64,000 nucleotides of DNA from an uncultured Solirubrobacteraceae bacterium (GTDB lineage: Bacteria; Actinomycetota; Thermoleophilia; Solirubrobacterales; Solirubrobacteraceae), in contig OY969097.1 of the NCBI GenBank assembly GCA_963697795.1, positions 3,138,972 to 3,202,971 of the forward strand, read 5' to 3'. This document shows, one piece after another, positions 5,753 through 49,602 of the stretch (its first letter is position 1; every line of letters begins with the position of its first letter). A model generated the notes under the pieces. That model made no database searches, was not told the DNA's origin, and worked only from the letters and a program-made list of their open reading frames with translations. Position numbers and translations under genes: made by a program.

Positions 5753-7423
5753 ATGAACCTCTTCGATCATCTGGAGGCAGTGGCGGCGGGCGGGGCCTCA
5801 CCCCCGTGGTGGTCGGCGCGGTCGCTGAGCGAGCCCCACCCCGAGTTCGACGCGAAGCTGATCTCCCGCGTGGACTGCTGGCAGGACAAGCGCCGCGCCC
5901 GCGAGGCACTGGAACGGGTCGAGCAGAACCCCGCCGTCGAGCGCCTGCGGCCGGAAGGACGGGAAGTGTGGGTGCGCCTGAGTGAGAGCCTGCTGGAAGG
6001 GCTGGGGGAGCGCTTCGAGGACCCTTCCGCCGGCCTGCCCGACAACGGCGACCTGCTGGCGGGCAGGCGCTTCGTCGTGAACTTCTGGTGCGCCAACGCG
6101 ACCAAGGCCCTGCACGTCGGGCACCTGCGAAACCTCGCCGTGGGCAACGGCCTGGCCGGCGTCTTCAGGGAGTCGGGAGCGGAGGTCGAGCGTCACAGCC
6201 TGATCTGCGACGTCGGGCGCAGCATGGGGGAGGCGATGGCGGGGGTCGCCCGCAGCGGCCCGCAGGCAGGCCCGGAGCTGGAGAAGCCCGACCACTTCGT
6301 CGGGCGCTGCTACCTGGACTACCTGCGGGCCACAGCCGAGCGCGTCACCCCCGACGTCGGCTCGCGCGAGATCGCGAGGGGGGAGATGGAGGAGCAGGAC
6401 GGGGCGGACGACCTGACGCTGCGGCTGCTGGCCGGCGACCCGGCGGCCAGGGAGCTGTGGCTGGCGACCCGCTCGTGGGTGATGGAGGGCCAGGAAGAGA
6501 CGCTCGGCCGCCTGGGCGTGGACTTCGAGCGCGTCTACTACGAGTCCGACTACCTGGCCAGGATGCGCGAGCTGGAGCAGGCCGGCCTGCGCGCGGGGGT
6601 TCTGCGTCGTGACGGCGACGGCGTCGTCGTCTACCCGACGGGGCTCAGCGAGCTGGAGGAGATGCCGCTGGTCCGCAGCGACGGCGTGCCGACCCAGCAC
6701 ATGCGCTCCCTGGCCTTCTGGATCGACCCACCGGATCTCGAGGGAGCCCTCTCGATTCAGGTCTCGGGCGCCGAGTGGGTCTCACACGTCGCCTGCCGGC
6801 GCAGGCTGGCGGCTGCCCTCGGCGCCGACGGCAGGGCCGTCGCGACCAAACCCACCCACGACGTCTTCCACGGCATGGTCGCCGTCGAGAAGCGGGCCAT
6901 GGCCTCCAGCGTGGAAGGGGCCCTGCTGATCGACGACATCCTCGACTGGCTGGACGCCCAGATCGACAGCGACGAACACGCCAAGCGAGTGCTGGAGTCG
7001 CACCCCTGCCCCGAGCGCGTCCCCGCGCAGGTCGCCCTGGCCTGCTTTTCCCTGCGGCAGGTCGGCAAGACCGTCGACTTCGACCCCTTGTCGCTGCTGG
7101 ACGTCTCGCGCAGCCCCGGCTGGGCCCTGGCGTGCGCCCGTGCCGGCAGCGGGCGTCCCGTCGGGGAGGCGGACCTGCGCGCGGCCACGGGCGACCCCGA
7201 CTACCGCTACGCGCTTGTGCAGTCGGAGATGTACCGCCGTCACCTGCTGCGGACGATCGGGACGCGCGACCTGGAGATGCTGGCCCGCTACGCCTTCCGG
7301 CTGGCGGGCTGGTATCTGCGCGAACCGAGGGCGGCCACGGTCGAGCGTGTCGTGGGGGCGACGCTCGGCCAGGCCGCCCGCGGGCTGGGTCTGGAACCCG
7401 CGCAGGCGGAGCGGGTCGGCTGA
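5753..7423 (+). CDS. arginyl-tRNA-synthetase-like class-I aaRS paralog 1 (specificity unknown)
   Basis: 556 aa. The HIGH region FWCANATKALHVGHLRNLAVGNGLAG...CDVGRSMGEAMAG aligns by eye with ArgRS ([21 protein letters not shown]...HVGDWGTQFG). The KMSKS position is degenerate (KRAMASS). The C-terminal DALR-like helical region contains RYAFRLAGWY. About 60-65% identical by eye to the paralog at 51755..53419. Confidence 0.8.
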   Translation: MNLFDHLEAVAAGGASPPWWSARSLSEPHPEFDAKLISRVDCWQDKRRAREALERVEQNPAVERLRPEGREVWVRLSESLLEGLGERFEDPSAGLPDNGDLLAGRRFVVNFWCANATKALHVGHLRNLAVGNGLAGVFRESGAEVERHSLICDVGRSMGEAMAGVARSGPQAGPELEKPDHFVGRCYLDYLRATAERVTPDVGSREIARGEMEEQDGADDLTLRLLAGDPAARELWLATRSWVMEGQEETLGRLGVDFERVYYESDYLARMRELEQAGLRAGVLRRDGDGVVVYPTGLSELEEMPLVRSDGVPTQHMRSLAFWIDPPDLEGALSIQVSGAEWVSHVACRRRLAAALGADGRAVATKPTHDVFHGMVAVEKRAMASSVEGALLIDDILDWLDAQIDSDEHAKRVLESHPCPERVPAQVALACFSLRQVGKTVDFDPLSLLDVSRSPGWALACARAGSGRPVGEADLRAATGDPDYRYALVQSEMYRRHLLRTIGTRDLEMLARYAFRLAGWYLREPRAATVERVVGATLGQAARGLGLEPAQAERVG

Positions 7424-7427: not shown

Positions 7428-8381
7428 ATGGCCGAGATGGTCGCGATCGAGCAGCGCCCCGTCGGCAGAGACGCGGCGCCGTGGGTGCGCGAACGGGGCC
7501 TCTTCACGCTCGGCCACGAGAACGACAGGCGCATCGCCGAGCTGCGCAAGGGCCTTCTAGGGCACCGGCGGGTGCGCATCGAGGCAGCCCAGGCGCACGA
7601 CGACGAGGTCGAGGGGGTCCTGGACCGCCTGCACGAGCCCGACTACCTGGCGGCGATCCGCTCCGTGGCGAGCGACAGGCCGGTCGTGCTGGAGACCGTG
7701 GCTGCACCCGGGACGATGCCCGACATCCCCGTCAACGCCGGGCTCGTGGCGGCCGCGCACGAGGGCATCAGGGTCTCGATCACGGCCGCCAGGCGCCTGC
7801 TGGCCGGCGCCCGCTACACCTACGCCCTGTGCAGGCCGCCCGGCCATCACGCCGGGCCCGCCTGGTGCGGCGGCTACTGCTATCTGAACAACGCGGCCGC
7901 GGCGGCGCAGGTGCTCGGCGAGGCCGGCCTCACCGGCGTCGCGCTAGTCGACCTCGACCTGCACTACGGCAACGGCACGGCCGCGATCGTCGCGGGGATG
8001 CCGAGCACGGCGATGTGGTCGCTGCACGAGCAGCGCAACGGCACACCGCCGCCCGAGCCCTTCAGCCCACGCGAGCACCAGATCGCCTTCACGAGCGTCC
8101 CCAGCGCCGAGGACTACCTGCGGGCCCTCGCCGGAGCCATCGCCGAGTTCCCCTCCGACACGCAGGCCGTCGTCGTCTCGCTCGGCTACGACACGGTCGT
8201 CGGGGACCCTCACGGCGCCTGGCGCTTCCCGCCGGGCATCTTCGCCAGCATCGGGCGGCTGCTCAGAGAGACCGGCCTGCCGCTGTGCATCGTTCAGGAG
8301 GGCGGATACGCGCTGCGGGCGCTGGCACCCTGCAGCCGGGCTTTCGCCGGCGGACTGCTCGACGATGATCCGCTCCAGTGA
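7428..8381 (+). CDS. histone-deacetylase-family (arginase/deacetylase fold) amidohydrolase
   Basis: Catalytic motifs LCRPPGHHAG and VDLDLHYGNGT are present, plus a C-terminal QEGGY. The start is 5 nt after the paralog-1 stop. Confidence 0.8.
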   Translation: MAEMVAIEQRPVGRDAAPWVRERGLFTLGHENDRRIAELRKGLLGHRRVRIEAAQAHDDEVEGVLDRLHEPDYLAAIRSVASDRPVVLETVAAPGTMPDIPVNAGLVAAAHEGIRVSITAARRLLAGARYTYALCRPPGHHAGPAWCGGYCYLNNAAAAAQVLGEAGLTGVALVDLDLHYGNGTAAIVAGMPSTAMWSLHEQRNGTPPPEPFSPREHQIAFTSVPSAEDYLRALAGAIAEFPSDTQAVVVSLGYDTVVGDPHGAWRFPPGIFASIGRLLRETGLPLCIVQEGGYALRALAPCSRAFAGGLLDDDPLQ

Positions 8382-9669
8382 CCTGCTCGTAGTCGGAGCG
8401 GGAGCCAAGGCGGCCGCGCTCGCCGCCAAGGTTCACGCCCTTAACACGCTCGGCGTCGCCTCGCTGAGCATGACTATCGTCGAGGCCGTCGAGCCGGCCG
8501 CCTCCTGGCTGGGACTGGGCGGTGCCACCTCCGGCGCGGAGCCCCTGGCCCAGGCACCCGTCAAGGACGTCGGTTTCCCCTACCAGAGCCGGCGCAGCTT
8601 CGACGGCTACGGCGAGGCGATCGACGGTCACGTCCTCTCCCTCTCCTGGCAGTCCTACCTGATCCACGAAGGCCGTTACGCCCGCTGGGTCGACGCGGGC
8701 TCCCCCACCGTCACGCACGGCGACTACGGCCGCTACCTGGCCTGGGTCCTCTCCAGGGCCACCGCCGGCGTGCGCCTGGAGCGAGGACGCGCCGAGCGGG
8801 TCCTGCTCGAACCGGACGACGAGCACTGGGAGGTCGAGGTGGGGGAGGACACGTTCACGGCACGAGCGCTCGTCCTGACGGGACCGGGCGTCCAGGCCCC
8901 GCTTCCCCACGACGAGGCGGTCGCCTCGCGCATCCTGCACAGCGGAGGGCCCCGCGCCCGCTTCACGGTCATCCCCGAGACGCCCTGCTGCGAGGTGGCG
9001 ATCGTCGGCGGCGGCGACAGCGCCATCGCCTGCGTGGCCTACGTGCTGGCGCTGCGCCCGCGGGTGCGCCTGACGATCTACACGCCCGAGCTCCCGGCCG
9101 GCCGCGGCGAGAGCTTCCTGGAGAACCGCGTCTTCTCGACACCGGACGAGGTCGCCTGGAGCAGCCTCGGCCTCGAGCAGCGCCGGACCTTCGTGCGCCG
9201 CGGCGACAGGGGCGTGTTCGACCCCCTGGCCCTCTCGGAGATCGCCTTCGACGACCGCTGCACGTTCGTGCGCGGCCGCGTCACCCGGCTCGTCGCGGCG
9301 GCGGACGGCCGGGGTGTCGCCGTGGAGCACACCGGCGGCCCGCCGGGCACCCACGACTTCGTCGTCAACTGCACCGGCGCGGACATGCGCCTGCAGATCG
9401 AGGAGCTGCTGGGGCGGGACGTGCGCCGAGAGGTGGCCCGCCGGATCGGGGTCGACTGGGAGACGGCGATCGGGCCCGACGCCCACTTCGGGTACGCGCT
9501 GGAGATCCCCGGCCTCGCCCCGGCTTTGCACGTCCCAGCCCTGGCGGCCCTCAGCCAGGGCCCAGGCTTCGCCAACCTCGGCTGCCTGGGCATGCTCGCG
9601 AACAGGGTGCTGGAGCCGCTCGTGAAGAGCTCGCGGCGCGCGGCCGCCAAGCTCGTGCAGGTCCGCTAG
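8365..9669 (+). CDS. FAD/NAD(P)-binding oxidoreductase (possibly N-hydroxylating flavin monooxygenase-like)
   Basis: N-terminal dinucleotide motif LLVVGAGAKAAA and a second motif VAIVGGGDSAIA indicate a two-Rossmann flavoprotein architecture. It overlaps the deacetylase gene by 17 nt. The monooxygenase subfamily guess is weak. Confidence 0.6.
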   Translation: MIRSSDLLVVGAGAKAAALAAKVHALNTLGVASLSMTIVEAVEPAASWLGLGGATSGAEPLAQAPVKDVGFPYQSRRSFDGYGEAIDGHVLSLSWQSYLIHEGRYARWVDAGSPTVTHGDYGRYLAWVLSRATAGVRLERGRAERVLLEPDDEHWEVEVGEDTFTARALVLTGPGVQAPLPHDEAVASRILHSGGPRARFTVIPETPCCEVAIVGGGDSAIACVAYVLALRPRVRLTIYTPELPAGRGESFLENRVFSTPDEVAWSSLGLEQRRTFVRRGDRGVFDPLALSEIAFDDRCTFVRGRVTRLVAAADGRGVAVEHTGGPPGTHDFVVNCTGADMRLQIEELLGRDVRREVARRIGVDWETAIGPDAHFGYALEIPGLAPALHVPALAALSQGPGFANLGCLGMLANRVLEPLVKSSRRAAAKLVQVR

Positions 9670-15427: not shown

Positions 15428-17044
15428 ATGACTTCCGCCCGGCGTGCCAAGGATCGGCGGACGGCCAGGGCCCATCAGGCCGCATCGGCACGCTCGAGTC
15501 GGACCCCGCCCCTCCCCGGCATGTCGCGCGGGGCGCTGCTTGGGGTGGGCGGGGTCGCGGTGGTCGTCGTCGCGGCGGTCGTATTGATCTTGGTCTTGGG
15601 CAGCTCGACGGCCAAGTCCCACCATCTGACGGGCAGCGCCTACCCGAACGTCGACACTTCCAACACCAGGGACGTGGGCGGGCCGATCAGCTCCACGAAC
15701 GTGAGCACGCTGCATCAGGCCTGGGCGCTGCCGGTCACGGGCAAGGGCGAATACGGCACCTACGCGGCCACGCCGGTCCTCAGCAAAGGCGTCGTCTACT
15801 CCCAGGATTTGGCCTCCAACGTGCAGGCGATCTCGCTGCGGACGGGAAAGGTCCTGTGGTCGACGCCCTACAACGCGCCCAGTCACGGCCCCAACGGCGT
15901 CGTCGTGGCCGAAGGACGCGTGTACGGGACGACCCCGACAGATGCGTTTGCCCTTGAACAGAGCACGGGCAGGCAGCTGTGGAAGGTTCACCTGACGGGA
16001 GGGGAAACGCCCGGTATAGACATGGCCCCGGGCTTCCACGACGGGATCGTCTACGTCTCGACGGTCCCAGGCGACCAGCACGAACCGGCGGCGGGCGAAA
16101 ACGTCGGCACTCTGTATGCCTTGAGGGCCTCCAACGGCGAAAAGCTGTGGAAGTTCCAAACAGTTCCCGAAGACACCTGGTCCAATGGCCAGGTCAACTG
16201 GGGCGGGGGCGTGTGGTACACGCCGGCCTTCGACGAACACGGCTTCATGTACTTCGGCGTCGCCAATCCGGAGCCGGCGCCAGGGACCCCCGAACAGCCG
16301 TGGGCGGCGAGCCGTCCGGGCCCGGACCTCTACACGGACTCGCTGATCAAGATGAACGCTCGCACCGGGAAGCTCGTGTGGTACTACCAGCTGACCCCGC
16401 ACGACGTCTACGACTGGGATCTGCAGGATCCCCCGATCCTGCTCGACAGCAACGGCACGCCGATGGTCGTCACGGCCGGCAAGGCGGGCACGGTGATCGC
16501 TCTGAACCGCGAAACGGGCAAGTTGATCTGGCGCCGTGACGTGGGCATCCACGACGGCCACGATCTCGACTCGCTTTACGCGATGAAACACGAATACTCG
16601 AAGCTGACACTGCCCGAGGTCGTCTACCCGGGTCGGCTCGGGGGCGTGATCGCCCCGATGGCCACGAACGGCACGACCGTGTTCGCGCCGGTCGTCAACC
16701 TGGCGCAGGAAATATCCTCCAGCTTCACCGTCACCGAAAAGCAGCTGGACGGCGAACTGGTGGCGCTCGACGTGGCGACGGGCAAGGTGCTGTGGACGCA
16801 CAAGTTCGCTACGCCCGCGTTCAGCGGCGTGACGGTCGTCAACGACCTGGTCTTCACCGAGGACTTCGAAGGGACCGCCTACGCCTTCGACGCGAAGACG
16901 GGCAAGGTCATGTGGGAAAGCAGCCTTCCGGCGGGGACCAACGCGGGCGTGGCTGTCGAAGGGAATACCGTCCTTGCTCCTGCGGGACTGCAGACCGCAG
17001 CGGGGCAGGAAACGGCGCTCACGGCGTACAGGCTGGGCGGCTGA
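15428..17044 (+). CDS. membrane-anchored PQQ-like beta-propeller repeat protein (quinoprotein-dehydrogenase-like)
   Basis: N-terminal basic segment plus a TM helix (LLGVGGVAVVVVAAVVLILVLG), then repeated G.LW/ W motifs (GKVLWST, GRQLWKV, GEKLWKF, GKLVWYYQ, GKLIWRR, GKVLWTH, GKVMWES) typical of PQQ propellers. Confidence 0.65.
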   Translation: MTSARRAKDRRTARAHQAASARSSRTPPLPGMSRGALLGVGGVAVVVVAAVVLILVLGSSTAKSHHLTGSAYPNVDTSNTRDVGGPISSTNVSTLHQAWALPVTGKGEYGTYAATPVLSKGVVYSQDLASNVQAISLRTGKVLWSTPYNAPSHGPNGVVVAEGRVYGTTPTDAFALEQSTGRQLWKVHLTGGETPGIDMAPGFHDGIVYVSTVPGDQHEPAAGENVGTLYALRASNGEKLWKFQTVPEDTWSNGQVNWGGGVWYTPAFDEHGFMYFGVANPEPAPGTPEQPWAASRPGPDLYTDSLIKMNARTGKLVWYYQLTPHDVYDWDLQDPPILLDSNGTPMVVTAGKAGTVIALNRETGKLIWRRDVGIHDGHDLDSLYAMKHEYSKLTLPEVVYPGRLGGVIAPMATNGTTVFAPVVNLAQEISSSFTVTEKQLDGELVALDVATGKVLWTHKFATPAFSGVTVVNDLVFTEDFEGTAYAFDAKTGKVMWESSLPAGTNAGVAVEGNTVLAPAGLQTAAGQETALTAYRLGG

Positions 17045-19088: not shown

Positions 19089-22000
19089 ATGAGCAGCGAC
19101 AGGGGTAAGAGGATTGTGGTTGTTTGTGTTTTGGTGGTTGTGTGGTGTTGTGTGTGGTGTGGGGTGGTGTGGGGTTTTCGTGGGCATGAACGGGTTGCTG
19201 GTGGTGTGTTTGGGGTTTCTGGGTCTGGGGTGTTGGAGTTGGATGAACCGGTGGGTGTGGCGGTGGATGAAGGGTCGGGTGTGGTGTATGTGGTGGATCG
19301 TGCTGGTGGTCGGGTTGAGGTGTTTGATGGTGTGGCGGGGGATATTGGTGAGTTGGTTGGTAGGGGTTTGGCGTCTGGTGAATTTGATGGTAGTGGGTTG
19401 TTGGGTGAAGGGGTGGAGGCTGGTGGTGGTGGGTTAGCGGGTGAAGTGGTGACGGGTCGGTTTGTGGATCCGTCGGGGGTGGCGGTTGATAATGGGTGTC
19501 GTGATCATCGTCCTGAACCGTTGTCGGGTGCGGCGTGTGAAGCGTTTGATCCTTCGAATGGTGATGTGTATGTGTTGGATTCGGGTCATGAGGTGGTGGA
19601 TAAGTACACGGCGTTGGGGCGTTATGTGGGTCAGATCAACGCGGGAACGTTGGGTGTGGAAGAACATGTTCGGCTTGAAGGTGTTGCGGTTGAAGGTGAT
19701 GGGGATGTTCTGGTGAGCACGCAGACCACGGTGGAGGCGTTGAGGACGTCTGAGGAAGGTGTGTTCCGGTTGTCTGATGGTGTGCGGAATGTGGTGTTGG
19801 GGTCTGGTGTGCCGACGGGGTTTACGGCGGCGGCGCAGTTAGGGTTTGTTGAAGGTGGGTTGGGTGCGGCGGGTGGTCGGGTGTTTGTGCCGCAGGGGTT
19901 TGCGGAAAAGGATGTGGCGGTCTATAGTTTGGCGGGGGGTTTTGTTGAAGAATTGGGTACGGGGCATGTTGTGGGGTTGGTGGGTGAGGTGTGTACGGGG
20001 GATGTGTATGTGGATGTGCGTGAAGCTGGTGTGGTGAGGCGGTTTGGGGTTGGTGGGGGGTTGGTTGAAGAATTGGTTGCTGGTGGTGGTGGTGGGGTTG
20101 GTGTTGATTGTGTTGGGTCGGGGGGGACGGTGTTTGTGGCGTTACCGTCTGGTGGGGTTGTGGCGGTGTATGGGCCTGAAGCGCCGAAAGCTCCTTTGGT
20201 GTCGGGGTTGGCGGTGTCGGGTGTGACCGCGGGGTCGGTGCGGTTTAGTGCGGAAGTTGATCCGCGTAGTGAAGTGGGTGAAGCGGCGACTGAGTTTGTG
20301 GTGGAATATGGGTTATGTCCGGCGGTGGGGTCGTGTGAAGGTGTGGGGTTTGAACAGGAACGTTCGTTGACGGGTAGTGTGGGTGCGGTGTTTGAAGGTG
20401 TGGTTGTGTCGCGTGAAGTGTCTGGGTTGGTGGCGGGGGGCCGGTATCATTTCCGGGTTGGTGCTCGGAATTCGCATAGTGTTGGTGGTTTGTCTGGTGA
20501 ATATTCGTATGGTGTGGGGGAAGATGCTGAACGGGTGTTCGTGATGGAGGGTTTGTCGTCTGGTGGTGGGGCGGGGTTGTTGGATGGGCGTGGTTGGGAA
20601 CTTGTGTCGCCGGTGGATAAGAATGGTGCGCTGGTTTTGCCGGTGCTTGAAACGGGGTTGATTGAGGCGGCGGCGGGGGGTGGGGCGTTTACGTATTTGG
20701 CTTCGACGGCGACTGAAGCCGGGGCGTTGGGTAATTCGAATAAGATGCAGGTGTTGGCGCGGCGGGGGTCGGGTGGTTGGGCGTCGTGTGATGTGGGGTT
20801 GCCGAATGGTGAAGCGACGGGCGTGTCGGTTGGGCAGGGGCAGGAGTATCAGGGGTTCAGCGCGGATTTGGGGACGGGTTTGGCGCGGCCGTTGGGGCGG
20901 GTCGTGCGGGGTCTTGTGGGTGGGGAGCGGGAAGTGAGCCCGTTGCTGGTGGGGTTCTCGGGGGCGTGCGGGGCGGGGGGGCTGTCTTATGATGCGTTGT
21001 TGTCGGGGTGTCCGTTGACGGGTGAATGTGAAGCTGTGGTGCGGGAACACGCGGATGTCGAACCGGGCATCGAAGTTGCCGAGGAAGGTTTGTGCGCGCA
21101 TGAAGTGCCGTTTTGTGATGGGGAACCGTTAGCGGCTAATGAATCGTTGTCGGGGGTGGTGTTGCGTTCGATGACGCCGTTGGTCGCGGGCGCGCCGGTG
21201 GAAGCGTTGTATGAGCCTTATGGTGGGCGGGTGTATCCGGTCAGTGTGAGACCGAACGGGACGGTGGTGGGTACTGTCGCGCATGAGCCGGTGGCGGGGA
21301 CGCAGGCGCACGGCAACGCGTTGCGTGGTGTGGTCTCAGCGGATGGTTCGCGGGTGGTGTGGTCAGAAGAAGTGCCGAATGGGCATTTGTTTGTGTGGGA
21401 TCGTGGGTTGGAACGGAGTGTGCAGGTTGATGTGGTGCAGGCGGGTGGGTCGGGGACAGGGCCTGTTGGGGCTGTTTTCCAGTACATGACCGGGGATGGG
21501 TCGAGGGTGTTTTTCACGGATACGCAGCAGTTGACGGCGGGGTCTGGTGCTGAAAATGATTCGCCGGATTTGTATGTGTGTGAAGTGGTGGTGGAAGGTT
21601 CGTCGGGGAAGTGTGTTGTGAGGGATTTGACGCCGATGGTGGGTGGGCAGCATGCGGATGTGTTGGGGCAGGTGATCGGCGGCTCGGAATCGGGCGGGTT
21701 AGTGTATTTCGTAGCGAATGGTGAGTTGACGAAAACACCGTCCGCGTCGGGAGAAGAACCGGTCGCGGGAGGGTGCGGGTTGGAATCGTCGCCGGGGAAG
21801 TTGTGTGATTTGTATGTGTGGAGTGAAGGTGCCGCGGAACCGGTGTTGGTGGGTGTGCTGTCGGGTGAAGACGTGGATGATTGGGGTGGCGGTAGCGAGC
21901 AGTTGACGAATTTGACGGGGCGGGTCGCGGGTGGGGGTGAATGGTTGGTGTTTATGTCGGATCGGTCGTTGACGGGTTATGACACGCGGGATGCGGTCGT

Positions 22001-22850
22001 TTCGGGGGTGCGTGATGAGGAGGTGTATGAGTACAGGTTCGGGGGCGGGTTGGTGTGTGTGTCGTGTGATCCGTCTGGTGAACGGCCGCATGGGGTGGAA
22101 TACGCGAAGTTGAACGAAGGTGCGGCGGCGGGTACTGGCGTGTGGCCGGAAGGGGCACGGCTGGCGGGGTTTGTGCCTAGTTGGACTCCTTACCGGAAGC
22201 AAGGGGCGTTTTATCAGTCGAGGTTTTTGGGTGGGTCGGGGCGGGTGTTTTTTGATTCGTCTGATGGTTTGGTGGCTGGTGATAGTGATGGTGTGGTTGA
22301 TGTGTATGAGTTTGAGCCGGTTGGGGTGGGTTCGTGTCGGGTGGGTGGTGTGGGGTTCGTGGCGGTTGATGATGGTTGTTTGGGGTTGGTGTCGTCGGGT
22401 GAAAGTGGTCAGGAATCAGGGTTTTTGGATGCGTCTGAATCTGGTGATGAAGTGTTCTTTTTGACTACTTCTCGGTTGTCGGGGCGTGATAGGGACACGG
22501 CGTATGATGTGTATGATGCGCGTGTGGGTGGCGGGGAACCCGTGCTGTCGGGGGTTGGTGTGTGTGGGGGTGGGTTTTGTCAGGAACCGGCTGGGGAACC
22601 GTCGGCTCCGGTGGCGGGGTCGGAGGGGTTTGAAGGGCCGGGTAGTCCGTTGGTGGAAGCGATCGTGCCGCCGGTGAAGGTGTTGACGCGGGCGCAGAAG
22701 TTGAAGGCCGCGTTGAAGGCGTGTGGTAGGGATCGTGTGAAGCGTAAGCGGGTGGTGTGTGAACGTGGTGCGCGTAGGCGGTATGGGCCGGTGAAGAAGA
22801 AGAAGGGTGTGCGAGGGGCGTCTGTGGTGCGGGTTGGGGGGCGAGGCTGA
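19089..22850 (+). CDS. large V/G-rich membrane-anchored or secreted repeat protein, NHL-like and PD40/TolB-like beta-propeller repeats (cassette protein B)
   Basis: 1253 codons. Hydrophobic N-terminus (VVVCVLVVVWCCVWCGVVW). NHL-like motifs are PVGVAVDEGSGVVYVVDRAGGRVEVFD and PSGVAVD...NGDVYVLDSGHEVVDKY. PD40-like motifs are SADGSRVVWSE, GDGSRVFFTD, GGLVYFVANG, GEWLVFMSDRS, SGRVFFDSSD and GDEVFFLTTS. The C-terminal tail is basic. The ORF is far longer than the 60-120-codon chance ORFs in the other frames of this stop-poor region. Confidence 0.75.
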   Translation: MSSDRGKRIVVVCVLVVVWCCVWCGVVWGFRGHERVAGGVFGVSGSGVLELDEPVGVAVDEGSGVVYVVDRAGGRVEVFDGVAGDIGELVGRGLASGEFDGSGLLGEGVEAGGGGLAGEVVTGRFVDPSGVAVDNGCRDHRPEPLSGAACEAFDPSNGDVYVLDSGHEVVDKYTALGRYVGQINAGTLGVEEHVRLEGVAVEGDGDVLVSTQTTVEALRTSEEGVFRLSDGVRNVVLGSGVPTGFTAAAQLGFVEGGLGAAGGRVFVPQGFAEKDVAVYSLAGGFVEELGTGHVVGLVGEVCTGDVYVDVREAGVVRRFGVGGGLVEELVAGGGGGVGVDCVGSGGTVFVALPSGGVVAVYGPEAPKAPLVSGLAVSGVTAGSVRFSAEVDPRSEVGEAATEFVVEYGLCPAVGSCEGVGFEQERSLTGSVGAVFEGVVVSREVSGLVAGGRYHFRVGARNSHSVGGLSGEYSYGVGEDAERVFVMEGLSSGGGAGLLDGRGWELVSPVDKNGALVLPVLETGLIEAAAGGGAFTYLASTATEAGALGNSNKMQVLARRGSGGWASCDVGLPNGEATGVSVGQGQEYQGFSADLGTGLARPLGRVVRGLVGGEREVSPLLVGFSGACGAGGLSYDALLSGCPLTGECEAVVREHADVEPGIEVAEEGLCAHEVPFCDGEPLAANESLSGVVLRSMTPLVAGAPVEALYEPYGGRVYPVSVRPNGTVVGTVAHEPVAGTQAHGNALRGVVSADGSRVVWSEEVPNGHLFVWDRGLERSVQVDVVQAGGSGTGPVGAVFQYMTGDGSRVFFTDTQQLTAGSGAENDSPDLYVCEVVVEGSSGKCVVRDLTPMVGGQHADVLGQVIGGSESGGLVYFVANGELTKTPSASGEEPVAGGCGLESSPGKLCDLYVWSEGAAEPVLVGVLSGEDVDDWGGGSEQLTNLTGRVAGGGEWLVFMSDRSLTGYDTRDAVVSGVRDEEVYEYRFGGGLVCVSCDPSGERPHGVEYAKLNEGAAAGTGVWPEGARLAGFVPSWTPYRKQGAFYQSRFLGGSGRVFFDSSDGLVAGDSDGVVDVYEFEPVGVGSCRVGGVGFVAVDDGCLGLVSSGESGQESGFLDASESGDEVFFLTTSRLSGRDRDTAYDVYDARVGGGEPVLSGVGVCGGGFCQEPAGEPSAPVAGSEGFEGPGSPLVEAIVPPVKVLTRAQKLKAALKACGRDRVKRKRVVCERGARRRYGPVKKKKGVRGASVVRVGGRG

Positions 22851-26544: not shown

Positions 26545-27258
26545 ATGAAACACATCAAAACGCTCGGCCTCGCCCTGCTCGCACTCTTCGCGATCAGCGC
26601 GATCACCGCAGCAGCGGCGAGCGCAATCACAAACGCAGAATTCTTACCCGCACCAACAGTCAGCAGCCCACTCAACGCGAGCGTCACCGGCGGCAAAGGC
26701 AAGCTCGTCACCGTCGGCGGCAAGGTGGTCAGCTGCGAAGGCTTCAAAGGCAGTGGGAAATTCACGAGTGCGACGTTAGGGGAAGGCTCGATCGAATTCA
26801 CGACGTGCTCGAGTGAAGGCTCGAAATGCACGACCGGCTCAGACGCCAAAGGCACGATCTTAGCGCCCACAGTCGACCTGTTAGCCGTCTCGGTATCGGA
26901 AGCATCCAAACTATTACTTGGACTTCTAATCACTCCGACCGCGAATGTGACTTTCACATGCGGCGTCCTGAAATTCGAAGTCAAGGGCTCAATCGTCGCT
27001 GAAGCCGGGCAACTAAGAGAATCATCCCTGACCGAAACACTGAAAACAGTACCGATGCCCGCCGAAGGCACCAAAGAATTAATCTTAGCCGTACTACTGA
27101 CCCTCGTGCTCAACGAGACGAATGGCAAACCGACATTCGGTCCTGACCACCTCGAAACAACCGACAACGGGACCACGTTCGAAGAATCCGGGATCAAGTC
27201 CGAAGAAACGATCACGGTGACCTTCAGCAACCCCGAAAAGGTCCACATCGACTACTAG
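26545..27258 (+). CDS. small secreted 4-Cys protein, tandem paralog D1
   Basis: 237 aa. Signal peptide MKHIKTLGLALLALFAISAITAAAASA. The mature part begins ITNAEFLPAPTVSSPL and ends SNPEKVHIDY. The true start is inside ORF 26383..27258. I counted 7 TTA and 4 CTA among 28 Leu codons. Confidence 0.8.
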   Translation: MKHIKTLGLALLALFAISAITAAAASAITNAEFLPAPTVSSPLNASVTGGKGKLVTVGGKVVSCEGFKGSGKFTSATLGEGSIEFTTCSSEGSKCTTGSDAKGTILAPTVDLLAVSVSEASKLLLGLLITPTANVTFTCGVLKFEVKGSIVAEAGQLRESSLTETLKTVPMPAEGTKELILAVLLTLVLNETNGKPTFGPDHLETTDNGTTFEESGIKSEETITVTFSNPEKVHIDY

Positions 27259-27286
27259 CCACACCGCAACACAACACAAGCAGAAA

Positions 27287-27315
27287 GGTGGGGCCGCCTC
27301 CAAGGCGGCCCCACC
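27287..27315 (+). terminator. GC-rich intergenic stem-loop after D1
   Basis: GGTGGGGCCGCC-TCCAA-GGCGGCCCCACC, a perfect 12-bp stem with no U-tract. The same element follows D2 and both D1/D2 homologs in copy 2. Confidence 0.4.
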
Positions 27316-27475
27316 ACACTCCACACCAAAAAGAGAACAGCCAGACCTTAGAGAACCTCACACCACGCACACGACACAAACCAGACACAAAACGCAGGGC
27401 ATGTGGGGACCAACAACACAGCGGGCATCGACCCGTCCGTGCCCAACAACAACAGTCCACACAGAGGAGCCCACA

Positions 27476-28189
27476 ATGAACCACGCAAAGGCAACACTCC
27501 TCGCCCTGCTCGCACTCACCGCGACCAGCGCGATCACCGCAACAACAGCAAACGCGGTCACAAACGCAGAATTCTTACCCTCACCAACAGTCAGCAGCCC
27601 ACTCAACGCGAGCATCACCGGCGGCAATCTCAAACTAGTCACTGTCGGCGGCAAGGAAGTCAGATGCACAGGCTTCAAAGGTAGCGGTAGCTTTACGAGT
27701 GCGACGTTAGGGACGGGCTCGATTGAATTCACGACGTGCACGAGTGAAGGCTCGAAATGCACGACCGGCGCAGACGCCAAAGGCACGATCTTAGCGCCCA
27801 CGGTCGACCTGTTAGCCGTCTCGGTATCGGAAGCATCCAAACTATTACTTGGACTTCTAATCACTCCGACCGCGAACGTGACTTTCACATGCGGCGTCCT
27901 GAAATTCGAAATCAAGGGCTCTGTCGTCGCTGAAGCCGGGCAACTAAGAGAATCATCCCTGACCGAAACACTCAAAACAGTACCGAGGCCCGCCGAAGGC
28001 ACCAAAGAATTAATCTTAGCCGTACTACTGACCCTCGTGCTCAACGAGTCAGGTGGCAAACCGACATTCGGTCCTGACCACCTCGAAATAACCGACAACG
28101 GCACCACCTTCGAAGAATCCGGGCTCAAGTCCGAAGAAACAATCACGGTGACCTTCAGCAACCCCGAAAAGGTCCACATCGACTACTAG
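27476..28189 (+). CDS. small secreted 4-Cys protein, tandem paralog D2
   Basis: 237 aa. GAGGAG lies 7 nt upstream of the ATG. Starts MNHAKATLLALLALTATSAITATTANA, then VTNAEFLPSPTVSSPL. I counted 7 TTA and 5 CTA codons. Confidence 0.8.
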   Translation: MNHAKATLLALLALTATSAITATTANAVTNAEFLPSPTVSSPLNASITGGNLKLVTVGGKEVRCTGFKGSGSFTSATLGTGSIEFTTCTSEGSKCTTGADAKGTILAPTVDLLAVSVSEASKLLLGLLITPTANVTFTCGVLKFEIKGSVVAEAGQLRESSLTETLKTVPRPAEGTKELILAVLLTLVLNESGGKPTFGPDHLEITDNGTTFEESGLKSEETITVTFSNPEKVHIDY

Positions 28190-28212
28190 CCACGCAACAC
28201 AACACGCAGACA

Positions 28213-28242
28213 GGTGGGGCCGCCTCCAGAGGCGGCCCCACC
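28213..28242 (+). terminator. GC-rich intergenic stem-loop after D2
   Basis: GGTGGGGCCGCC-TCCAGA-GGCGGCCCCACC, 12-bp stem. Confidence 0.4.
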
Positions 28243-28404
28243 ACGCTCCAGACCAACGGGAGGACGGCCAGACGTTTAGAGAACGTCGGCCACGAACACG
28301 ACACAAACCAGACACAAAGCGCAGGGCATGTGGGGACCAACAGCACAGCGGGCAGAGCCCCGCCGGTGCCTAAACTACAAAAGTTCCACACCGAGGAGCC
28401 GACA

Positions 28405-29118
28405 ATGAACCACACAAAGGCGACACTTCTTGCCCTGCTCGCACTCACCGCGACCAGCGCGATCACCGCAGCAACAGCAAACGCGGTCACAAACGCAGAA
28501 CTGTTACCCGCACCAACAACCAGCAGCCCACTCACCGCGAGCGTCACCGGCGGCAAAGGCAAACTCGTCACCGTCGGCGGCAAGGAAGTCAGCTGCACCG
28601 GCTTCGCGGGTAAAGGGAAATTCACGAGTGCGACGTTAGGGACGGGCTCGATCGAATTCACGACATGCTCGAGTGAAGGCTCGAAATGCACGACCGGCTC
28701 AGACGCCAAAGGCACGATCTTAGCACCCACCGGCGACCTGTTAGCCGTCTCGGTATCGGAAGCATCCAAACTATTACTCGGACTGCTAATAACCCCCACC
28801 GCCAACGTGACCTTCACATGCGGCGTCCTGAAATTCGAAGCCAAGGGGTCCCTCATTATTGAAGCGAGTGAACTAAGAGAATCATCCCTGACCGAAACAC
28901 TCAAAACAGTACCGATGCCCGCCGAAGGCACCAAAGAATTAATCTTAGCCGTACTAATAACCGGTACGCTCAACGAGACGGGAGGAAAACCGACCTTCGG
29001 TCCCGACCACCTCGAAATCTCCGACAACGGCACCACATTCGAAGAAGCCGGCGCCAAGTCCGAAGAAACGATCACCGCAACCTTCAGCAACCCCGAAAAG
29101 ATACACATCGACTACTAG
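28405..29118 (+). CDS. small secreted 4-Cys protein, tandem paralog D3
   Basis: 237 aa. MNHTKATLLALLALTATSAITAATANA, then VTNAELLPAPTTSSPL, ending SNPEKIHIDY. Most similar to 45937..46650. Confidence 0.8.
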   Translation: MNHTKATLLALLALTATSAITAATANAVTNAELLPAPTTSSPLTASVTGGKGKLVTVGGKEVSCTGFAGKGKFTSATLGTGSIEFTTCSSEGSKCTTGSDAKGTILAPTGDLLAVSVSEASKLLLGLLITPTANVTFTCGVLKFEAKGSLIIEASELRESSLTETLKTVPMPAEGTKELILAVLITGTLNETGGKPTFGPDHLEISDNGTTFEEAGAKSEETITATFSNPEKIHIDY

Positions 29119-44069: not shown

Positions 44070-44783
44070 ATGAAACACATCAAAACGCTCGGCCTCGCCC
44101 TGCTCGCACTCTTCGCGATCAGCGCGATCACCGCAGCAGCGGCGAGCGCAATCACAAACGCAGAATTCTTACCCGCACCAACAGTCAGCAGCCCACTCAA
44201 GGCGAGCGTCACCGGCGGCAAAGGCAAGCTCGTCACCGTCGGCGGCAAGGAAGTCAAATGCGAAGGCTTCTCAGGTAAAGGGGAATTCACGAGTGCGACG
44301 TTAGGGACGGGCTCGATCGAATTCACGACGTGCACGAGTGAAGGCTCGAAATGCACGACCGGCTCAGACGCCAAAGGCACGATCTTAGCGCCCACGGTCG
44401 ACCTGTTAGCCGTCTCGGTATCGGAAGCATCCAAACTATTACTTGGACTTCTAATAACCCCCACCGCGAACGTGACCTTCACATGCGGCGTCCTGAAATT
44501 CGAAGTCAAGGGCTCAATCGTCGCCGAAGCCGGGCAACTAAGAGAATCATCCCTGACCGAAACACTGAAAACAGTACCGATGCCTGCCGAAGGCACCAAA
44601 GAATTAATCTTAGCCGTACTACTGACCCTCGTGCTCAACGAGACAGGTGGCAAACCGACATTCGGTCCTGACCACCTCGAAACAACCGACAACGGGACCA
44701 CCTTCGAAGAATCCGGGATCAAGTCCGAAGAAACGATCACGGTGACCTTCAGCAACCCCGAAAAGGTCCACATCGACTACTAG
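44070..44783 (+). CDS. small secreted 4-Cys protein, paralog D1 of copy 2
   Basis: 237 aa with the same signal peptide as 26545..27258 (MKHIKTLGLALLALFAISAITAAAASA). Internal start within ORF 43911..44783. Confidence 0.8.
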   Translation: MKHIKTLGLALLALFAISAITAAAASAITNAEFLPAPTVSSPLKASVTGGKGKLVTVGGKEVKCEGFSGKGEFTSATLGTGSIEFTTCTSEGSKCTTGSDAKGTILAPTVDLLAVSVSEASKLLLGLLITPTANVTFTCGVLKFEVKGSIVAEAGQLRESSLTETLKTVPMPAEGTKELILAVLLTLVLNETGGKPTFGPDHLETTDNGTTFEESGIKSEETITVTFSNPEKVHIDY

Positions 44784-45002: not shown

Positions 45003-45716
45003 ATGAACCACGCAAAGGCAACGCTCCTCGCCCTGCTCGCACTCACCGCGACCAGCGCGATCACCGCAGCAACAGCAAACGCGGTCACAAACGCAGAATT
45101 CTTACCCGCACCAACAACCAGCAGCCCACTCAAAGCGAGCATCTCCGGCGGCAAATTGAAACTAGTCACCGTCGGCGGCAAGGAAGTCGGCTGCACAGGC
45201 TTCCAAGGCAAAGGTGAATTCACGAGTGCGACGTTAGGGACGGGCTCAATTGAATTCACCGGCTGCACGAGTGAAGGCTCGAAATGCACGACCGGCTCAG
45301 ACGCCAAAGGCACGATCTTAGCGCCCACGGTAGACCTGTTAGCCGTCTCGGTATCCGAAGCATCCAAACTATTACTCGGACTTCTAATAACCCCCACCGC
45401 CAACCTGTCCTTCGCATGCGGCGTCCTGAAATTCGAAATCAAGGGCTCTGTCGTCGCTGAAGCCGGGCAACTAAGAGAATCATCCCTGACCGAAACACTC
45501 AAAACAGTACCGAGGCCCGCCGAAGGCACCAAAGAATTAATCTTAGCCGTACTACTGTCCCTCGTGCTCAACGAGTCAGGTGGGAAACCGACATTCGGTC
45601 CTGACCACCTCGAAATAACCGACAACGGGACTACCTTCGAAGAATCCGGGATCAAGGCCGAAGAAACGATCACGGTGACCTTCAGCAACCCCGAAAAGGT
45701 CCACATCGACTACTAG
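45003..45716 (+). CDS. small secreted 4-Cys protein, paralog D2 of copy 2
   Basis: 237 aa. MNHAKATLLALLALTATSAITAATANA, then VTNAEFLPAPTTSSPLKASISGGKLKLVTV. Confidence 0.8.
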   Translation: MNHAKATLLALLALTATSAITAATANAVTNAEFLPAPTTSSPLKASISGGKLKLVTVGGKEVGCTGFQGKGEFTSATLGTGSIEFTGCTSEGSKCTTGSDAKGTILAPTVDLLAVSVSEASKLLLGLLITPTANLSFACGVLKFEIKGSVVAEAGQLRESSLTETLKTVPRPAEGTKELILAVLLSLVLNESGGKPTFGPDHLEITDNGTTFEESGIKAEETITVTFSNPEKVHIDY

Positions 45717-45936: not shown

Positions 45937-46650
45937 ATGAGCCACGCAAAGGCAACACTCCTCGCCCTGCTCGCACTCACCGCGACCAGCGCGATCACCG
46001 CAGCAACAGCAAACGCGGTCACAAACGCGGAACTGTTACCCGCACCAACAGTCAGCAGCCCACTCAACGCGAAAGTCGTCGGCGGCAAAGGCAAGCTCGT
46101 CACCGTCGGCGGCAAGGAAGTCAGCTGCACAGGCTTCCAAGGCAGCGGGAAATTCACGAGTGCGACGTTAGGGGAAGGCTCGATTGAATTCACCGGCTGC
46201 ACGACTGAAGGCTCGAAATGCACGACCGGCTCAGACGCTAAAGGCACGATCTTAGCACCCACCGGCGACCTGTTAGCCGTCTCGGTATCGGAAGCATCCA
46301 AACTATTACTTGGACTTCTAATCACTCCGACCGCCAACGTGACCTTCACATGCGGCGTGCTGAAATTCGAAGTCAAGGGCTCAATCATTATCGAAGCTGG
46401 GCAACTAAGAGAATCATCCCTGACCGAAACACTCAAAACAGTACCGATGCCTGCCGAAGGCACCAAAGAATTAATCTTAGCCGTACTAATAACCGGTACG
46501 CTCAACGAGACGGGAGGCAAACCCACCTTCGGTCCCGACCACCTCGAAATAACCGACAACGGCACCACATTCGAAGAAGCCGGCGCCAAGTCCGAAGAAA
46601 CAATCACCGCAACCTTCAGCAACCCCGAAAAGATACACATCGACTACTAG
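45937..46650 (+). CDS. small secreted 4-Cys protein, paralog D3 of copy 2
   Basis: 237 aa. MSHAKATLLALLALTATSAITAATANA. It shares the D3-specific features (ELLPAPT, IIIEA, ITGTLNETGG, EEAGAKSEETITATFSNPEKIHIDY). Confidence 0.8.
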   Translation: MSHAKATLLALLALTATSAITAATANAVTNAELLPAPTVSSPLNAKVVGGKGKLVTVGGKEVSCTGFQGSGKFTSATLGEGSIEFTGCTTEGSKCTTGSDAKGTILAPTGDLLAVSVSEASKLLLGLLITPTANVTFTCGVLKFEVKGSIIIEAGQLRESSLTETLKTVPMPAEGTKELILAVLITGTLNETGGKPTFGPDHLEITDNGTTFEEAGAKSEETITATFSNPEKIHIDY

Positions 46651-48233: not shown

Positions 48234-48824
48234 TCAGGAGCGCGCCGCGGAGTCGAACAGGTGGCCCGAGGGTATCCCGATCACGCTGCCGCTGAATCGC
48301 TTCTTGGCTCCGTAGACGACCCACGTCGTGTCCACGGCGCCGTAGCGCTCGACGAGCCGCAGGCGCTCGGGGTTTTCCGCGGCGTGGTGGACGTGCGTGA
48401 GGCCGGCGTCGTAGCGTCCGGCCAGGAGGTTCGCAGCCACGACCGGCTTTGAGGGCTCGTCGATCACCTGCTCCCACGGATCGAGGTCGAGATAGCCGCG
48501 GGTCGCCGAGACGATGCCGAGGCTTCGCGGCTGCTCCACGTCGCGCCTGACGAGCAGGCCGAGCTCCTTGGTCGGGTAGATGAAGGTGTCGATCACGAAC
48601 ACCGATCGGTGGTAGCGCTCGGTGACCAGATGCACCTGCACGTGGGCGCTGCACTGGACGAGGTAGGTGTTATCCCGGTCGCGCACCTGCACGATCGCCT
48701 CCAGCAGGTCGGGGACCAGTTCGACGTCGTAGGACTCGAGCCCCTGGAACTCCAGGTAGTGCAGGAGCGCATTCTCATGACAGGTGCCGCTGGGCCCGAG
48801 GGTGATGAAGGTCGGACGGCTCAC
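48234..48824 (-). CDS. prephenate-dehydratase-fold protein lacking an ACT domain (dehydratase or non-aromatizing decarboxylase)
   Basis: 196 aa. The N-terminal FITLGPSGTCHENAL resembles the PDT motif (LGP.GT.S..A). The GTG start overlaps the stop of the upstream gene (GTGA). Confidence 0.6.
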   Translation of the reverse strand: MSRPTFITLGPSGTCHENALLHYLEFQGLESYDVELVPDLLEAIVQVRDRDNTYLVQCSAHVQVHLVTERYHRSVFVIDTFIYPTKELGLLVRRDVEQPRSLGIVSATRGYLDLDPWEQVIDEPSKPVVAANLLAGRYDAGLTHVHHAAENPERLRLVERYGAVDTTWVVYGAKKRFSGSVIGIPSGHLFDSAARS

Positions 48825-49114
48825 GGCGTCGCTGCCGTGTCGTTGCCCATCAGCTCATCCTCCATCGCGCACGTCGCCGCGATCAGGACGTCGAACAGGG
48901 AGCTCGCGAACCCGTCGGGGAGGCCGGCTTGGCGCCCCCGCTCGGCGTAGCGCGCGCGCACCTCCTGGACGCGGCCCGGCTGCATCATCGGTATCTGGTG
49001 CTCGGCCTTGTAGCGCGCGATCTCCCTGCAAACCTCGAAGCGCTCGCCGAGCAGCCCGACGATACGCTCGTCGAGGTCGTCCAGGCGACGCCGATGTGGA
49101 TCCAGGCCGCTCAT
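48821..49114 (-). CDS. AroQ-class chorismate-mutase-like protein
   Basis: 97 aa. MSGLDPHRRRLDDLDERIVGLLGERFEVCREIARYKAEHQIPMMQPGRVQEVRARY, the typical AroQ helix pattern. ATGA overlap with the upstream GNAT stop. Confidence 0.75.
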   Translation of the reverse strand: MSGLDPHRRRLDDLDERIVGLLGERFEVCREIARYKAEHQIPMMQPGRVQEVRARYAERGRQAGLPDGFASSLFDVLIAATCAMEDELMGNDTAATP

Positions 49115-49602
49115 GAGGGCGCCAGCCGCATCCTCGGTCCGACCGGCACGAACCCGTTGCGTTCGTAGAACGAAGCCGTCGCGGCCAGCGCCCGGAAGCG
49201 CTCGGACGGGAGGCCCACCTCGATGCGCTCGATCCCACGCGTCTTGGCCAGCTCCCGCAGCTCCCCGAGCAGCCGGGCGCCGATCGCTCGGCTGCGCCAG
49301 TCCCAGCGAACCCACAGGTCCTGTATCAGGCAGTAGCGCCCTGCCGCGTGGATCGCCAGTTGCCAGCTGGCGGCCAGCACCCCCACGATCTCGCCTTCGC
49401 ACTCCGCCAGCAGGACGGCGCCCGCCGTCTCGTCGCCGATCAGCTCGCCGGCGGCCCGGCGCAGGAGCGCCTCGCTCGGCGGCGTCGCACCCAGCTCGAT
49501 CAGCAGGTCCCCGACAGCCGTTGCCACCTTCTGCACGTCCGCCGCGGCGGCACGCCTCACCGTCGCTTGCACGGCGTTGCCCTGTCTCGTCGTCCCGGTC
49601 AT
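49111..49602 (-). CDS. GNAT-family N-acetyltransferase
   Basis: 163 aa. Motif A region LIQDLWVRWDWRSRAIGARLLGELRELAK and C-terminal FYERNGF. ATGA overlap with the pabAB stop. Confidence 0.8.
   Translation of the reverse strand: MTGTTRQGNAVQATVRRAAAADVQKVATAVGDLLIELGATPPSEALLRRAAGELIGDETAGAVLLAECEGEIVGVLAASWQLAIHAAGRYCLIQDLWVRWDWRSRAIGARLLGELRELAKTRGIERIEVGLPSERFRALAATASFYERNGFVPVGPRMRLAPS

Follow-up and report, generated by a model that had tools for sequence, protein, structure and literature searches.

TTA-rich genes of a secreted protein family and noncanonical tRNAs with ArgRS-derived synthetases in Solirubrobacterales: conserved use of a rare codon and its possible readings

In Streptomyces, expression of TTA-containing genes depends on a single UUA-reading tRNA, the tRNA-Leu with anticodon UAA encoded by bldA (PMC4932002, PMC12772374). 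The ProRSx/tRNAProX pair of Streptomyces and Kitasatospora is a case of deliberate mistranslation (PMC10404621, PMC9437257), the pylTSBCD genes form the pyrrolysine system (reviewed in PMC11467909), and in RAAP-2 of the Acidimicrobiales the codon ACA was reassigned from Thr to Asp (bioRxiv 10.64898/2026.05.03.722492). Here we describe a chromosome segment of 64,000 nt (the window) from an uncultured Solirubrobacteraceae bacterium of the order Solirubrobacterales (contig OY969097.1), which has a GC content of about 70% and includes the start of a 16S rRNA gene at 63389. It carries TTA-rich genes for small secreted proteins, the D family, and two atypical tRNA genes with Leu anticodons, each located beside a gene for a synthetase-like protein termed RSx. 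The reading we prefer, at a probability of about 0.5, is that UUA means leucine and that the D family shows a selected, bldA-like dependence on a rare codon.

The D genes are part of an island which is present in two copies in the window. The first copy contains A1, B1, C1 and D1-D3 (17.8-29.1 kb), the second A2, B2, C2, an IS256 transposase gene and D4-D6 (34.0-46.7 kb). The six D genes are:

D1, 26545..27258, + strand: small secreted all-beta protein of the D family; 7 TTA and 4 CTA codons; match to the D-family hidden Markov model (HMM) with E=6e-63
D2, 27476..28189, + strand: 7 TTA codons, at residues 34, 78, 106, 113, 124, 177 and 179; 5 CTA codons
D3, 28405..29118, + strand: 7 TTA and 4 CTA codons
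D4, 44070..44783, + strand: copy-2 paralog of D1, 96.2% DNA identity; 7 TTA codons
D5, 45003..45716, + strand: paralog of D2, 93.7% DNA identity; 7 TTA codons
D6, 45937..46650, + strand: paralog of D3, 92.6% DNA identity; 7 TTA codons

Codons of D1, D2 and D3 were counted from the ATG codons at 26545, 27476 and 28405. Each of the three genes contains 7 TTA and no TTG codons, and CTA accounts for 4, 5 and 4 of the 28, 30 and 28 Leu codons. These numbers agree with the TTA and CTA counts of an earlier note on this DNA. One further CTA is located in the upstream open reading frame (ORF) extension of D1, outside the ATG-based count. Across the D genes of the window, TTG was found 0-1 times per gene. 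The base composition of the D genes predicts 7.5-8.4 TTA codons, with 7 observed, and 5-6 TTG codons, with none observed; the missing TTG is the anomaly. The same seven TTA columns are present in all six paralogs, as had been noticed before, which tells little alone because the paralogs are 87-96% identical in DNA. The signal-peptide leucines, described earlier as CTC and CTG, are indeed encoded by these codons and also by CTT, never by TTA. In the window, there are 0-1 TTA per approximately 10,000 housekeeping codons and 54 in the D and B genes. In 79 related loci TTA occurs about 0.15 times per 1000 codons, compared to about 27 per 1000 in the D genes. This resembles the bldA system, in that TTA is the rarest codon of a high-GC actinobacterium, is absent from housekeeping genes and is confined to accessory or exported functions. 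Targets of bldA have about 1-3 TTA codons each. D-family genes, in contrast, have 6-20 at conserved columns.

The D family is large. An index search identified only the copies of this genome and the protein P0125, and a metagenome scan for D relatives found none; the family emerged by an HMMER profile search, with 1190 representatives of mostly 220-245 aa. The AlphaFold model of D2 (pLDDT 92) is all-beta with long antiparallel strands. In a fold search of the PDB with this model no match reached E<0.01, the best ones being weak and to outer-membrane beta-barrels. On five other contigs (loci outside the window carry L numbers), D-family genes have 6-20 TTA and 0-3 TTG codons, at gene-level GC skews of -0.16 to +0.08 compared to up to +0.5 here. 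They include:

L086, three D-family genes: TTA/TTG 12/0, 12/1 and 12/1
L087, two D-family genes: TTA/TTG 20/2 and 16/3
L085, gene for P0125: TTA/TTG 8/1; GAA/GAG 35/1, AAA/AAG 29/3, ACA 2 and ACG 13
L091, one D-family gene: TTA/TTG 6/0; ACA 1 and ACG 14

P0246, the protein encoded in L091, is recorded on the genome contig of the window as well. Two more TTA-rich secreted genes were found in loci with a UAA-type tRNA (described below), one in L050 (6 TTA, matching the D-family HMM) and one in L077 (14 TTA, no match). The third D-like gene of L086 (5553-6270) is split into two overlapping ORFs and could be a frameshifted pseudogene or an assembly error.

For the analysis of TTA columns, D-family genes of six genomes with pairwise amino acid identities of 23-38% were used, and discordant genome pairs were compared with the number expected after shuffling. 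TTA against other Leu codons gave 27 discordant pairs where 55.5 were expected (P<0.0002), a ratio of 0.49. Eight synonymous controls (CTA/CTB, ACA, ACG, GCA, GGC, GTC, ATA and Ser AGY/TCN) showed ratios of 0.85-1.15. Two controls with very few G-ending codons were lower, namely Lys AAA/AAG with 0.62 (P=0.11) and Glu GAA/GAG with 0.53 (P=0.03). The TTA richness is accompanied by a strong excess of GAA over GAG and of AAA over AAG, spares the signal peptide and affects the same columns in distant genomes. It is not a by-product of skew, because homologs with little or no skew still have far more TTA than TTG. Taken together, the alignments show that TTA richness is conserved and under selection in a large family of secreted all-beta proteins of about 230 aa. 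The earlier suggestion that TTA in the D genes is functionally special therefore holds insofar as column conservation and unskewed homologs establish a real, selected, family-wide feature.

The two tRNAs with anticodons UAG and UAA, which the earlier note had already listed, were detected by ARAGORN and Rfam. They lie in the two halves of a gene cluster which is conserved in other genomes:

Noncanonical tRNA, anticodon UAG, 5413..5485, - strand: 73 nt, class I; divergent to RSx1
RSx1, 5753..7423, + strand: synthetase-like protein derived from arginyl-tRNA synthetase (ArgRS); HIGH motif kept, arginine-binding acidic residues lost
HDAC-like deacetylase and FAD/NAD(P) Lys/Orn-oxygenase-like genes, 7428..9669, + strand: conserved cluster, first half
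Membrane-anchored pyrroloquinoline quinone (PQQ)-type beta-propeller, 15428..17044, + strand: in other genomes the last gene of the conserved cluster
PabA-PabB fusion (PapA-like), GNAT, CM_2 (chorismate-mutase-like) and a 196-aa unknown gene, 48234..51800, - strand: rest of the tRNA-RSx operon
RSx2, 51755..53419, - strand: paralog of RSx1 with 43% identity; ortholog-type copy, operon-linked to the tRNA
Noncanonical tRNA, anticodon UAA, 53452..53525, - strand: 73/74 nt, class I; same strand as RSx2 and about 33 nt upstream of it
Cytochrome P450 of the conserved cluster, 53722..55092, + strand: 2 TTA codons in the ORF extension upstream of the probable start

Both tRNAs are of class I, 73-74 nt long and with a variable loop of 4 nt, and do not have the long arm of the class II bacterial tRNA-Leu (approximately 85-90 nt). 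The acceptor stem, GCACCAG, and the T arm are the same in both. The anticodon is that of Leu in both and A73 is invariant, so anticodon and discriminator base agree with tRNA-Leu; sister genes of the same tRNA family have the anticodon UGU. Judged by their architecture, both are not tRNA-Leu. Pairing in the cloverleaf is intact in 99.3% of pair cells over 20 distinct family sequences, and 9 pairs are compensated. A true class II tRNA-Leu(UAG) of the clade, 85 nt in length, is located on L108 alongside the 73-nt type. In L116 (1232-1306) a member of the special tRNA family was found with an 8-nt anticodon loop (ARAGORN 'gtaa'), which could be of the frameshift type or defective. Whereas bldA encodes a canonical class II tRNA-Leu, the tRNA here is of class I and is paired with its own synthetase. 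The distances from the tRNAs to the edges of the island are 12.3 kb and 6.8 kb, and the space between is occupied by housekeeping genes (serC, serA, leuA, ilvE, cimA and others). That they bracket the island is correct in position. The arrangement is incidental, since it arises from the splitting of the conserved cluster in this clade.

RSx1 and RSx2 comprise about 555 aa each. Against the ArgRS model TIGR00456 the score is 89 bits, below the curated cutoff of 262. In Pfam the catalytic core alone was matched, with no match for DALR_1 and the N-terminal domain, and the best PDB matches are the ArgRS structures 1iq0 and 1bs2. The class I HIGH motif (HVGH or HIGH) is invariant. In a profile alignment to 1bs2, Glu148 is replaced by Asn, Tyr347 by Gln and Asp351 by Ser or Ala; we take these three to be the residues that bind the arginine side chain (guanidinium group) in yeast ArgRS. 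By these comparisons RSx is a distant ArgRS relative with a changed arginine pocket. The family has more than 2000 homologs, the named ones being almost all from Solirubrobacterales, and 457 RSx loci were counted among species-representative genomes.

For comparison, 80 genome loci (L001-L080) were fetched and 80 metagenome contigs (L092-L171) served as a second sample. A 73-nt tRNA is located 30-40 nt upstream of RSx on the same strand in every fetched genome locus that has upstream DNA. The special tRNA is present in 78 of the 80 genome loci and the remaining two end upstream of RSx; for the anticodons, UAA was found 43 times and UGU 36 times among these 80 loci. In the metagenome sample 79 of the 80 contigs carry the tRNA, with anticodon UAA in 49, UGU in 28, UAG in one and an 8-nt anticodon loop in another. 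A tRNA is thus found beside the ArgRS-derived synthetase in more than 150 Solirubrobacterales loci. ARAGORN labels these tRNAs as tRNA-Leu or tRNA-Thr by the anticodon alone, and JGI labels RSx as 'arginyl-tRNA synthetase' in hundreds of metagenome-assembled genomes. These labels are probably wrong. Solirubrobacteraceae is the family in which the C and D genes occur, and each of the 13 loci with this label is UAA-type.

The genes of the cluster were assigned by Pfam/NCBIfam and synteny in the loci checked. RSx is followed by conserved, translationally coupled genes for the PabA-PabB fusion (PapA-like), a GNAT protein, an HDAC-type deacetylase and a chorismate-mutase-like enzyme, and the order continues with a P450, a FAD/NAD(P) oxygenase and the membrane-anchored PQQ-type beta-propeller. 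We infer from these genes a product of the p-aminophenylalanine type. PapABC is the p-aminophenylalanine pathway of chloramphenicol and pristinamycin producers. The PabA-PabB fusion and the chorismate-mutase-like enzyme resemble this pathway; the cluster differs in having no recognisable PapC and in the additional GNAT, deacetylase, P450, FAD oxygenase, tRNA and synthetase genes. We saw no member of an aminoacyl-tRNA transferase family (Fem, CDPS, LanB) among the cluster genes. In 80 loci the cluster is contiguous and without the island, while in the window's clade it is partly duplicated and split. Beside tRNA(UAG) one half has the RSx1, deacetylase and oxygenase genes, and the PQQ gene lies farther downstream; the other half contains tRNA(UAA), RSx2, PabAB, GNAT and CM_2, with the P450 gene divergent. 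The UAG half is conserved in the relatives L081-L084, with a compensatory change in the T stem.

Under the preferred leucine reading, UUA would be read by an ordinary UUA-reading tRNA-Leu encoded elsewhere in the genome. In the D family the rarest codon of the genome would gate translation or make it pause, a bldA-type control carried to an extreme, and the output of these exported proteins would then depend on the supply of U34-type tRNAs. The neighbouring tRNA-RSx operon for a p-aminophenylalanine-like product, split around the region, would not be needed to translate the island. Leucine is compatible with the sporadic occurrence of TTA at conserved Leu columns of RSx (L050) and PabB (L074), with exchanges between TTA and CTA or CTG in several D columns, and with Val and Ile as alternatives. 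Family-conserved TTA columns are Leu in 62-81% of 110 homologs, and Val and Ile are among the commoner other residues. It is also compatible with the ordinary class II tRNA-Leu(UAG) that coexists with the 73-nt tRNA in L108. Sporadic TTA codons at such Leu columns also occur in UGU-type genomes, which have no UAA-type tRNA at this locus. In conserved columns TTA was found at 2 Leu, 1 Arg and 2 Ser positions, numbers too small for a call.

Two further occurrences of TTA in cluster genes were set aside. The only recurrent TTA column is that of the C-terminal tail of the FAD oxygenase (L001-L080, approximately 16.2-16.4 kb), which is variable and overlaps a conserved AT-rich element containing TTGACA, so the column is uninformative. 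This element explains why TTA, CTA and ATA codons recur in the tail, and it probably serves the PQQ gene downstream as promoter. The 2 TTA codons of the P450 gene belong to an N-terminal extension which is absent from homologs and is therefore probably non-coding.

Conserved positions of rare codons are not without parallel. Pechmann and Frydman in 2013 and Chartier et al. in 2012 reportedly linked them to co-translational folding or secretion. In the D family non-optimal codons are likewise kept at homologous sites. Different from those cases, the effect here has the size of an amino acid difference and concerns a single codon.

Several observations weigh against leucine with rare-codon gating. 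The discordance ratio of 0.49 matches distinctions between amino acids (L/I 0.51, L/V 0.51, L/F 0.48). The partner residues in TTA-only columns are T, E, K, S and H, and 23% of them are hydrophobic compared to 56% in CTN-only columns (odds ratio (OR) 0.23, p=8e-9). This contrast is kept after L087 is dropped (OR 0.34, p=0.0018). At the TTA positions of D2 20% of the partners among 110 family proteins are hydrophobic, at the CTC/CTG/CTT positions 64%. The GAA/AAA-rich genes of L002, a UAA-type genome, are wholly without TTA (TTG 17, TTA 0). To our knowledge, the use of the rarest codon for up to 9% of all codons exceeds any bldA target by far. Finally, the only UUA-reading tRNA met was the noncanonical one; no whole-genome search for a canonical tRNA-Leu(UAA) was made. 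There is a neutral route to the polar partners: new Leu codons arising at K/E-rich sites would inherit A at the third position, and those arising at V/I/F sites would inherit C or G. If UUA is plain Leu, the D family would represent the most extreme rare-codon gating known to us, an exported family built largely on the rarest codon, and would be part of an unexplained signature of GAA, AAA and TTA that separates exported from cytoplasmic proteins.

It is possible, though we lean the other way, that tRNA(UAA) charged by RSx decodes the UUA codons of the D family as something other than Leu, a standard amino acid included. Dedicated recoding, the narrower form in which these codons are read by the noncanonical tRNA(UAA), either exclusively or with tRNA-Leu as a competitor, and RSx loads the product of the pathway, appears somewhat unlikely. 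For it speak the dedicated 73-nt tRNA upstream of RSx across the genome loci and again in the metagenome contigs, the maintained cloverleaf with its compensated pairs, and an RSx without the guanidinium-binding residues in an operon that is translationally coupled to biosynthetic genes and has no aminoacyl-tRNA transferase. On the side of the codons, TTA sites act like a separate amino acid at polar positions, TTA is missing from signal peptides, and its use is bimodal across gene families. The 13 of 13 Solirubrobacteraceae loci of UAA-type and the exported PQQ-type enzyme in the cluster point in the same direction. The entry of tRNA(UAA) into the ribosome is, however, putative. In RSx and PabB themselves TTA falls on conserved Leu columns; in several D columns it swaps with CTA and CTG, and its partners are not aromatic. 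No natural precedent is known for the insertion of a noncanonical amino acid at sense codons.

As in the pyrrolysine (pyl) system, the tRNA, a paralogous, dedicated synthetase and genes for amino acid biosynthesis (with an inferred product here) are clustered and conserved, and there are client genes with the codon at conserved positions, which for TTA is supported by the column test and for ACA has no counterpart. In contrast to pyl, which uses UAG, the codons are the rare sense codons UUA, ACA and CUA, there are many per client gene, and incorporation is putative.

The anticodon of the special tRNA always pairs with a rare A-ending codon (UUA, ACA or CUA). In UGU-type genomes ACA occurs 0.69 times per 1000 codons and in UAA-type genomes 1.80 times, and the depletion was observed in 4 of 4 UGU and 0 of 5 UAA tRNA lineages of similar third-position GC. 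In the second sample the values were 0.42 and 1.49 per 1000 codons. Overall ACA is 2.6-3.5 times rarer in UGU-type genomes, a point in favour of recoding. The specificity of this depletion is uncertain, because TCA and ATA are equally low in the second sample. For CTA no clear depletion was seen in the UAG clade, in a set with one ORF out of frame. In UGU-type loci no genuine ACA-rich ORF or ACA-rich gene family was found, and no L/T dimorphism was seen at conserved TTA columns among 110 D homologs. The special tRNA system shares with RAAP-2 the rare A-ending codon, the Actinomycetota clade of about 70% GC, a tRNA(UGU) with changed identity elements and the logic of codon capture. In RAAP-2 charging is attributed to a standard synthetase and ACA falls in Asp columns. 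Here, in contrast, a dedicated synthetase accompanies the tRNA, and conserved Thr columns of UGU-type genomes still have ACA, as Leu columns have CTA; for these two codons there is no sign of a reassignment of the kind detected by Codetta.

As a tentative proposal, Solirubrobacterales may carry a third natural system for an extra amino acid, consisting of the ArgRS-derived synthetase, the class I tRNA and a chorismate-derived pathway. In such a system the anticodon would have moved among the rarest sense codons UUA, ACA and CUA, and the clients in Solirubrobacteraceae would be the UUA-rich D proteins, with 7-20 non-Leu residues at defined, mostly surface positions. If the dedicated pair reads UUA, this would be the first natural case of a pathway-made amino acid at sense codons and would provide a ready-made orthogonal pair for genetic-code engineering. 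Our literature search found nothing on an ArgRS paralog with its own tRNA, on code changes in Solirubrobacterales or Thermoleophilia or on natural encoding of p-aminophenylalanine, and no paper that combines an ArgRS-derived synthetase with a lineage-variable class I tRNA on rare sense codons and a chorismate-derived pathway. The closest known systems (bldA, ProRSx/tRNAProX, pyl and RAAP-2) do not have this combination either.

Programmed mistranslation, in which RSx would load a standard and probably polar residue on the UAA, UGU and UAG tRNAs and UUA would be ambiguous as in ProRSx/tRNAProA, is very improbable in our view. The architecture is similar to that of ProRSx, where a duplicated aminoacyl-tRNA synthetase paralog adjoins an atypical tRNA with the anticodon of another amino acid, varying by lineage (PMC10404621), and the polar partners at TTA columns, with T, E and K on top, would fit. 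Unlike ProRSx, however, RSx is derived from the class I ArgRS and has not retained the parental amino acid pocket, and the pair is part of an operon with a biosynthetic pathway and has spread over a whole order (the 457 species-level loci). The altered arginine pocket and the absence of a single dominant partner residue in the TTA columns argue against mistranslation, which also leaves the tight operon link to the pathway unexplained.

Base composition has a clear influence on the other Leu codons of the island. The genes concerned are:

B1, 19089..22850, + strand: large NHL-repeat exported protein; C-depleted coding strand; TTG in 75 of 92 Leu codons
C1, 22850..26146, + strand: part of the B-C operon, which is widespread in Solirubrobacteraceae
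B2 and C2, 34955..42276, + strand: second copy of the island core; B 97.1% identical, C differing at 1 of 3297 nt

The first 190 codons of B1 contain 11 TTG, 1 TTA and no CTN, exactly as counted before, and the whole gene contains 75 TTG, 6 TTA and 11 CTN. In B and the 5' half of gene C (19089-24200 and 34955-40300) cytosine is strongly depleted on the coding strand, with a third-position C of 0.06 and a GC skew of +0.5; the skew reverses its sign near 24.2 kb, within gene C. The B homologs of other genomes are not C-depleted and use TTG and CTG 24 and 30 times (L087) or 7 and 27 times (L088). Of the sites where both of these homologs have C, 215 are G, 163 are T and 187 are still C in B1. We conclude from these alignments that the TTG dominance in B is a by-product of the C-depleted coding strand, because the unskewed homologs use normal Leu codons and B1 swaps C for G or T. 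The standard tRNA set has a cognate anticodon, CAA, for TTG. The proposal that TTG in B is matched to tRNA(UAA) by wobble is thus not supported, given the C depletion and the mixed codon use of the homologs.

CTA in the D genes behaves as ordinary leucine in our comparisons. It is found at strictly conserved Leu of argH (HLSRL) and tyrS (YPLLQGYD), where homologs have CTG or CTT. Against other CTN codons the D family gave 18 discordant pairs where 17.8 were expected, so there is no column conservation. The exchange partners of CTA sites are hydrophobic in 54%, compared to 64% for CTC/CTG/CTT. The CTA enrichment differs among D-family genes, and in the 4-fold codon families of the window's D genes NNA is about as frequent as NNG, a pattern into which CTA fits. 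Neither a match of CTA to tRNA(UAG) nor a reading as non-Leu, both considered in the earlier note, is supported, given the conserved Leu positions, the hydrophobic partners and the absence of site conservation. The comparisons show that the strand-specific composition of the island copies produced both the TTG bias of B and the greater part of the NNA excess in D, CTA included, as by-products. The caveat raised before, that the codon bias follows from strand bias, consequently applies to TTG and CTA; it fails for TTA, which persists in homologs without skew. That TTA, CTA and TTG all follow from strand-specific base composition with no selection is hardly tenable: the TTA count equals the expectation from D base composition and the third-position values (A 0.30 in D, C 0.06 in B) fit, but TTG is missing where 5-6 are expected, D-family genes of other contigs have TTA>>TTG with normal 4-fold sites, the site-by-site conservation of TTA contrasts with saturation at other synonymous sites, and homologs of 23-38% identity are not recent transfers of one sequence.

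The Glu codons show a split between exported and cytoplasmic proteins. The GAA share is 61-100% in A, B, C, D, the PQQ propeller, a lipoprotein (55160-56053) and a PBP, and 0-18% in 15 cytoplasmic genes. In some of them AAA/AAG runs in parallel, and the split was also observed in L002 (3916-7762), L022 (6417-7742), L087 and L088.

The divergence of the two island copies is a mosaic. Identity is 97.1% for B, 92.6-96.2% for the D pairs and only 78.6% for A, and C1 and C2 (22850-26146 and 38965-42276) are the same except at 1 of 3297 nt. This pattern suggests a recent gene conversion of C. Between C2 and D4 lies a partial transposase ORF of the IS256/Mutator family (42375-43157, - strand, 260 aa, profile positions 140-378), and this insertion is present in copy 2 only. 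Directly 5' of serC (phosphoserine transaminase), which is followed by serA, a ZMP/ZTP riboswitch was identified (58.7 bits; 9676-9758, + strand). A small protein with a collagen-like repeat is encoded at 47288-48157 of the window. It recurs beside the B-C operons of several Solirubrobacteraceae genomes, namely in L087 (13556-14293), L088 (4615-5382), L089 (5014-5868) and L090 (5242-5955).

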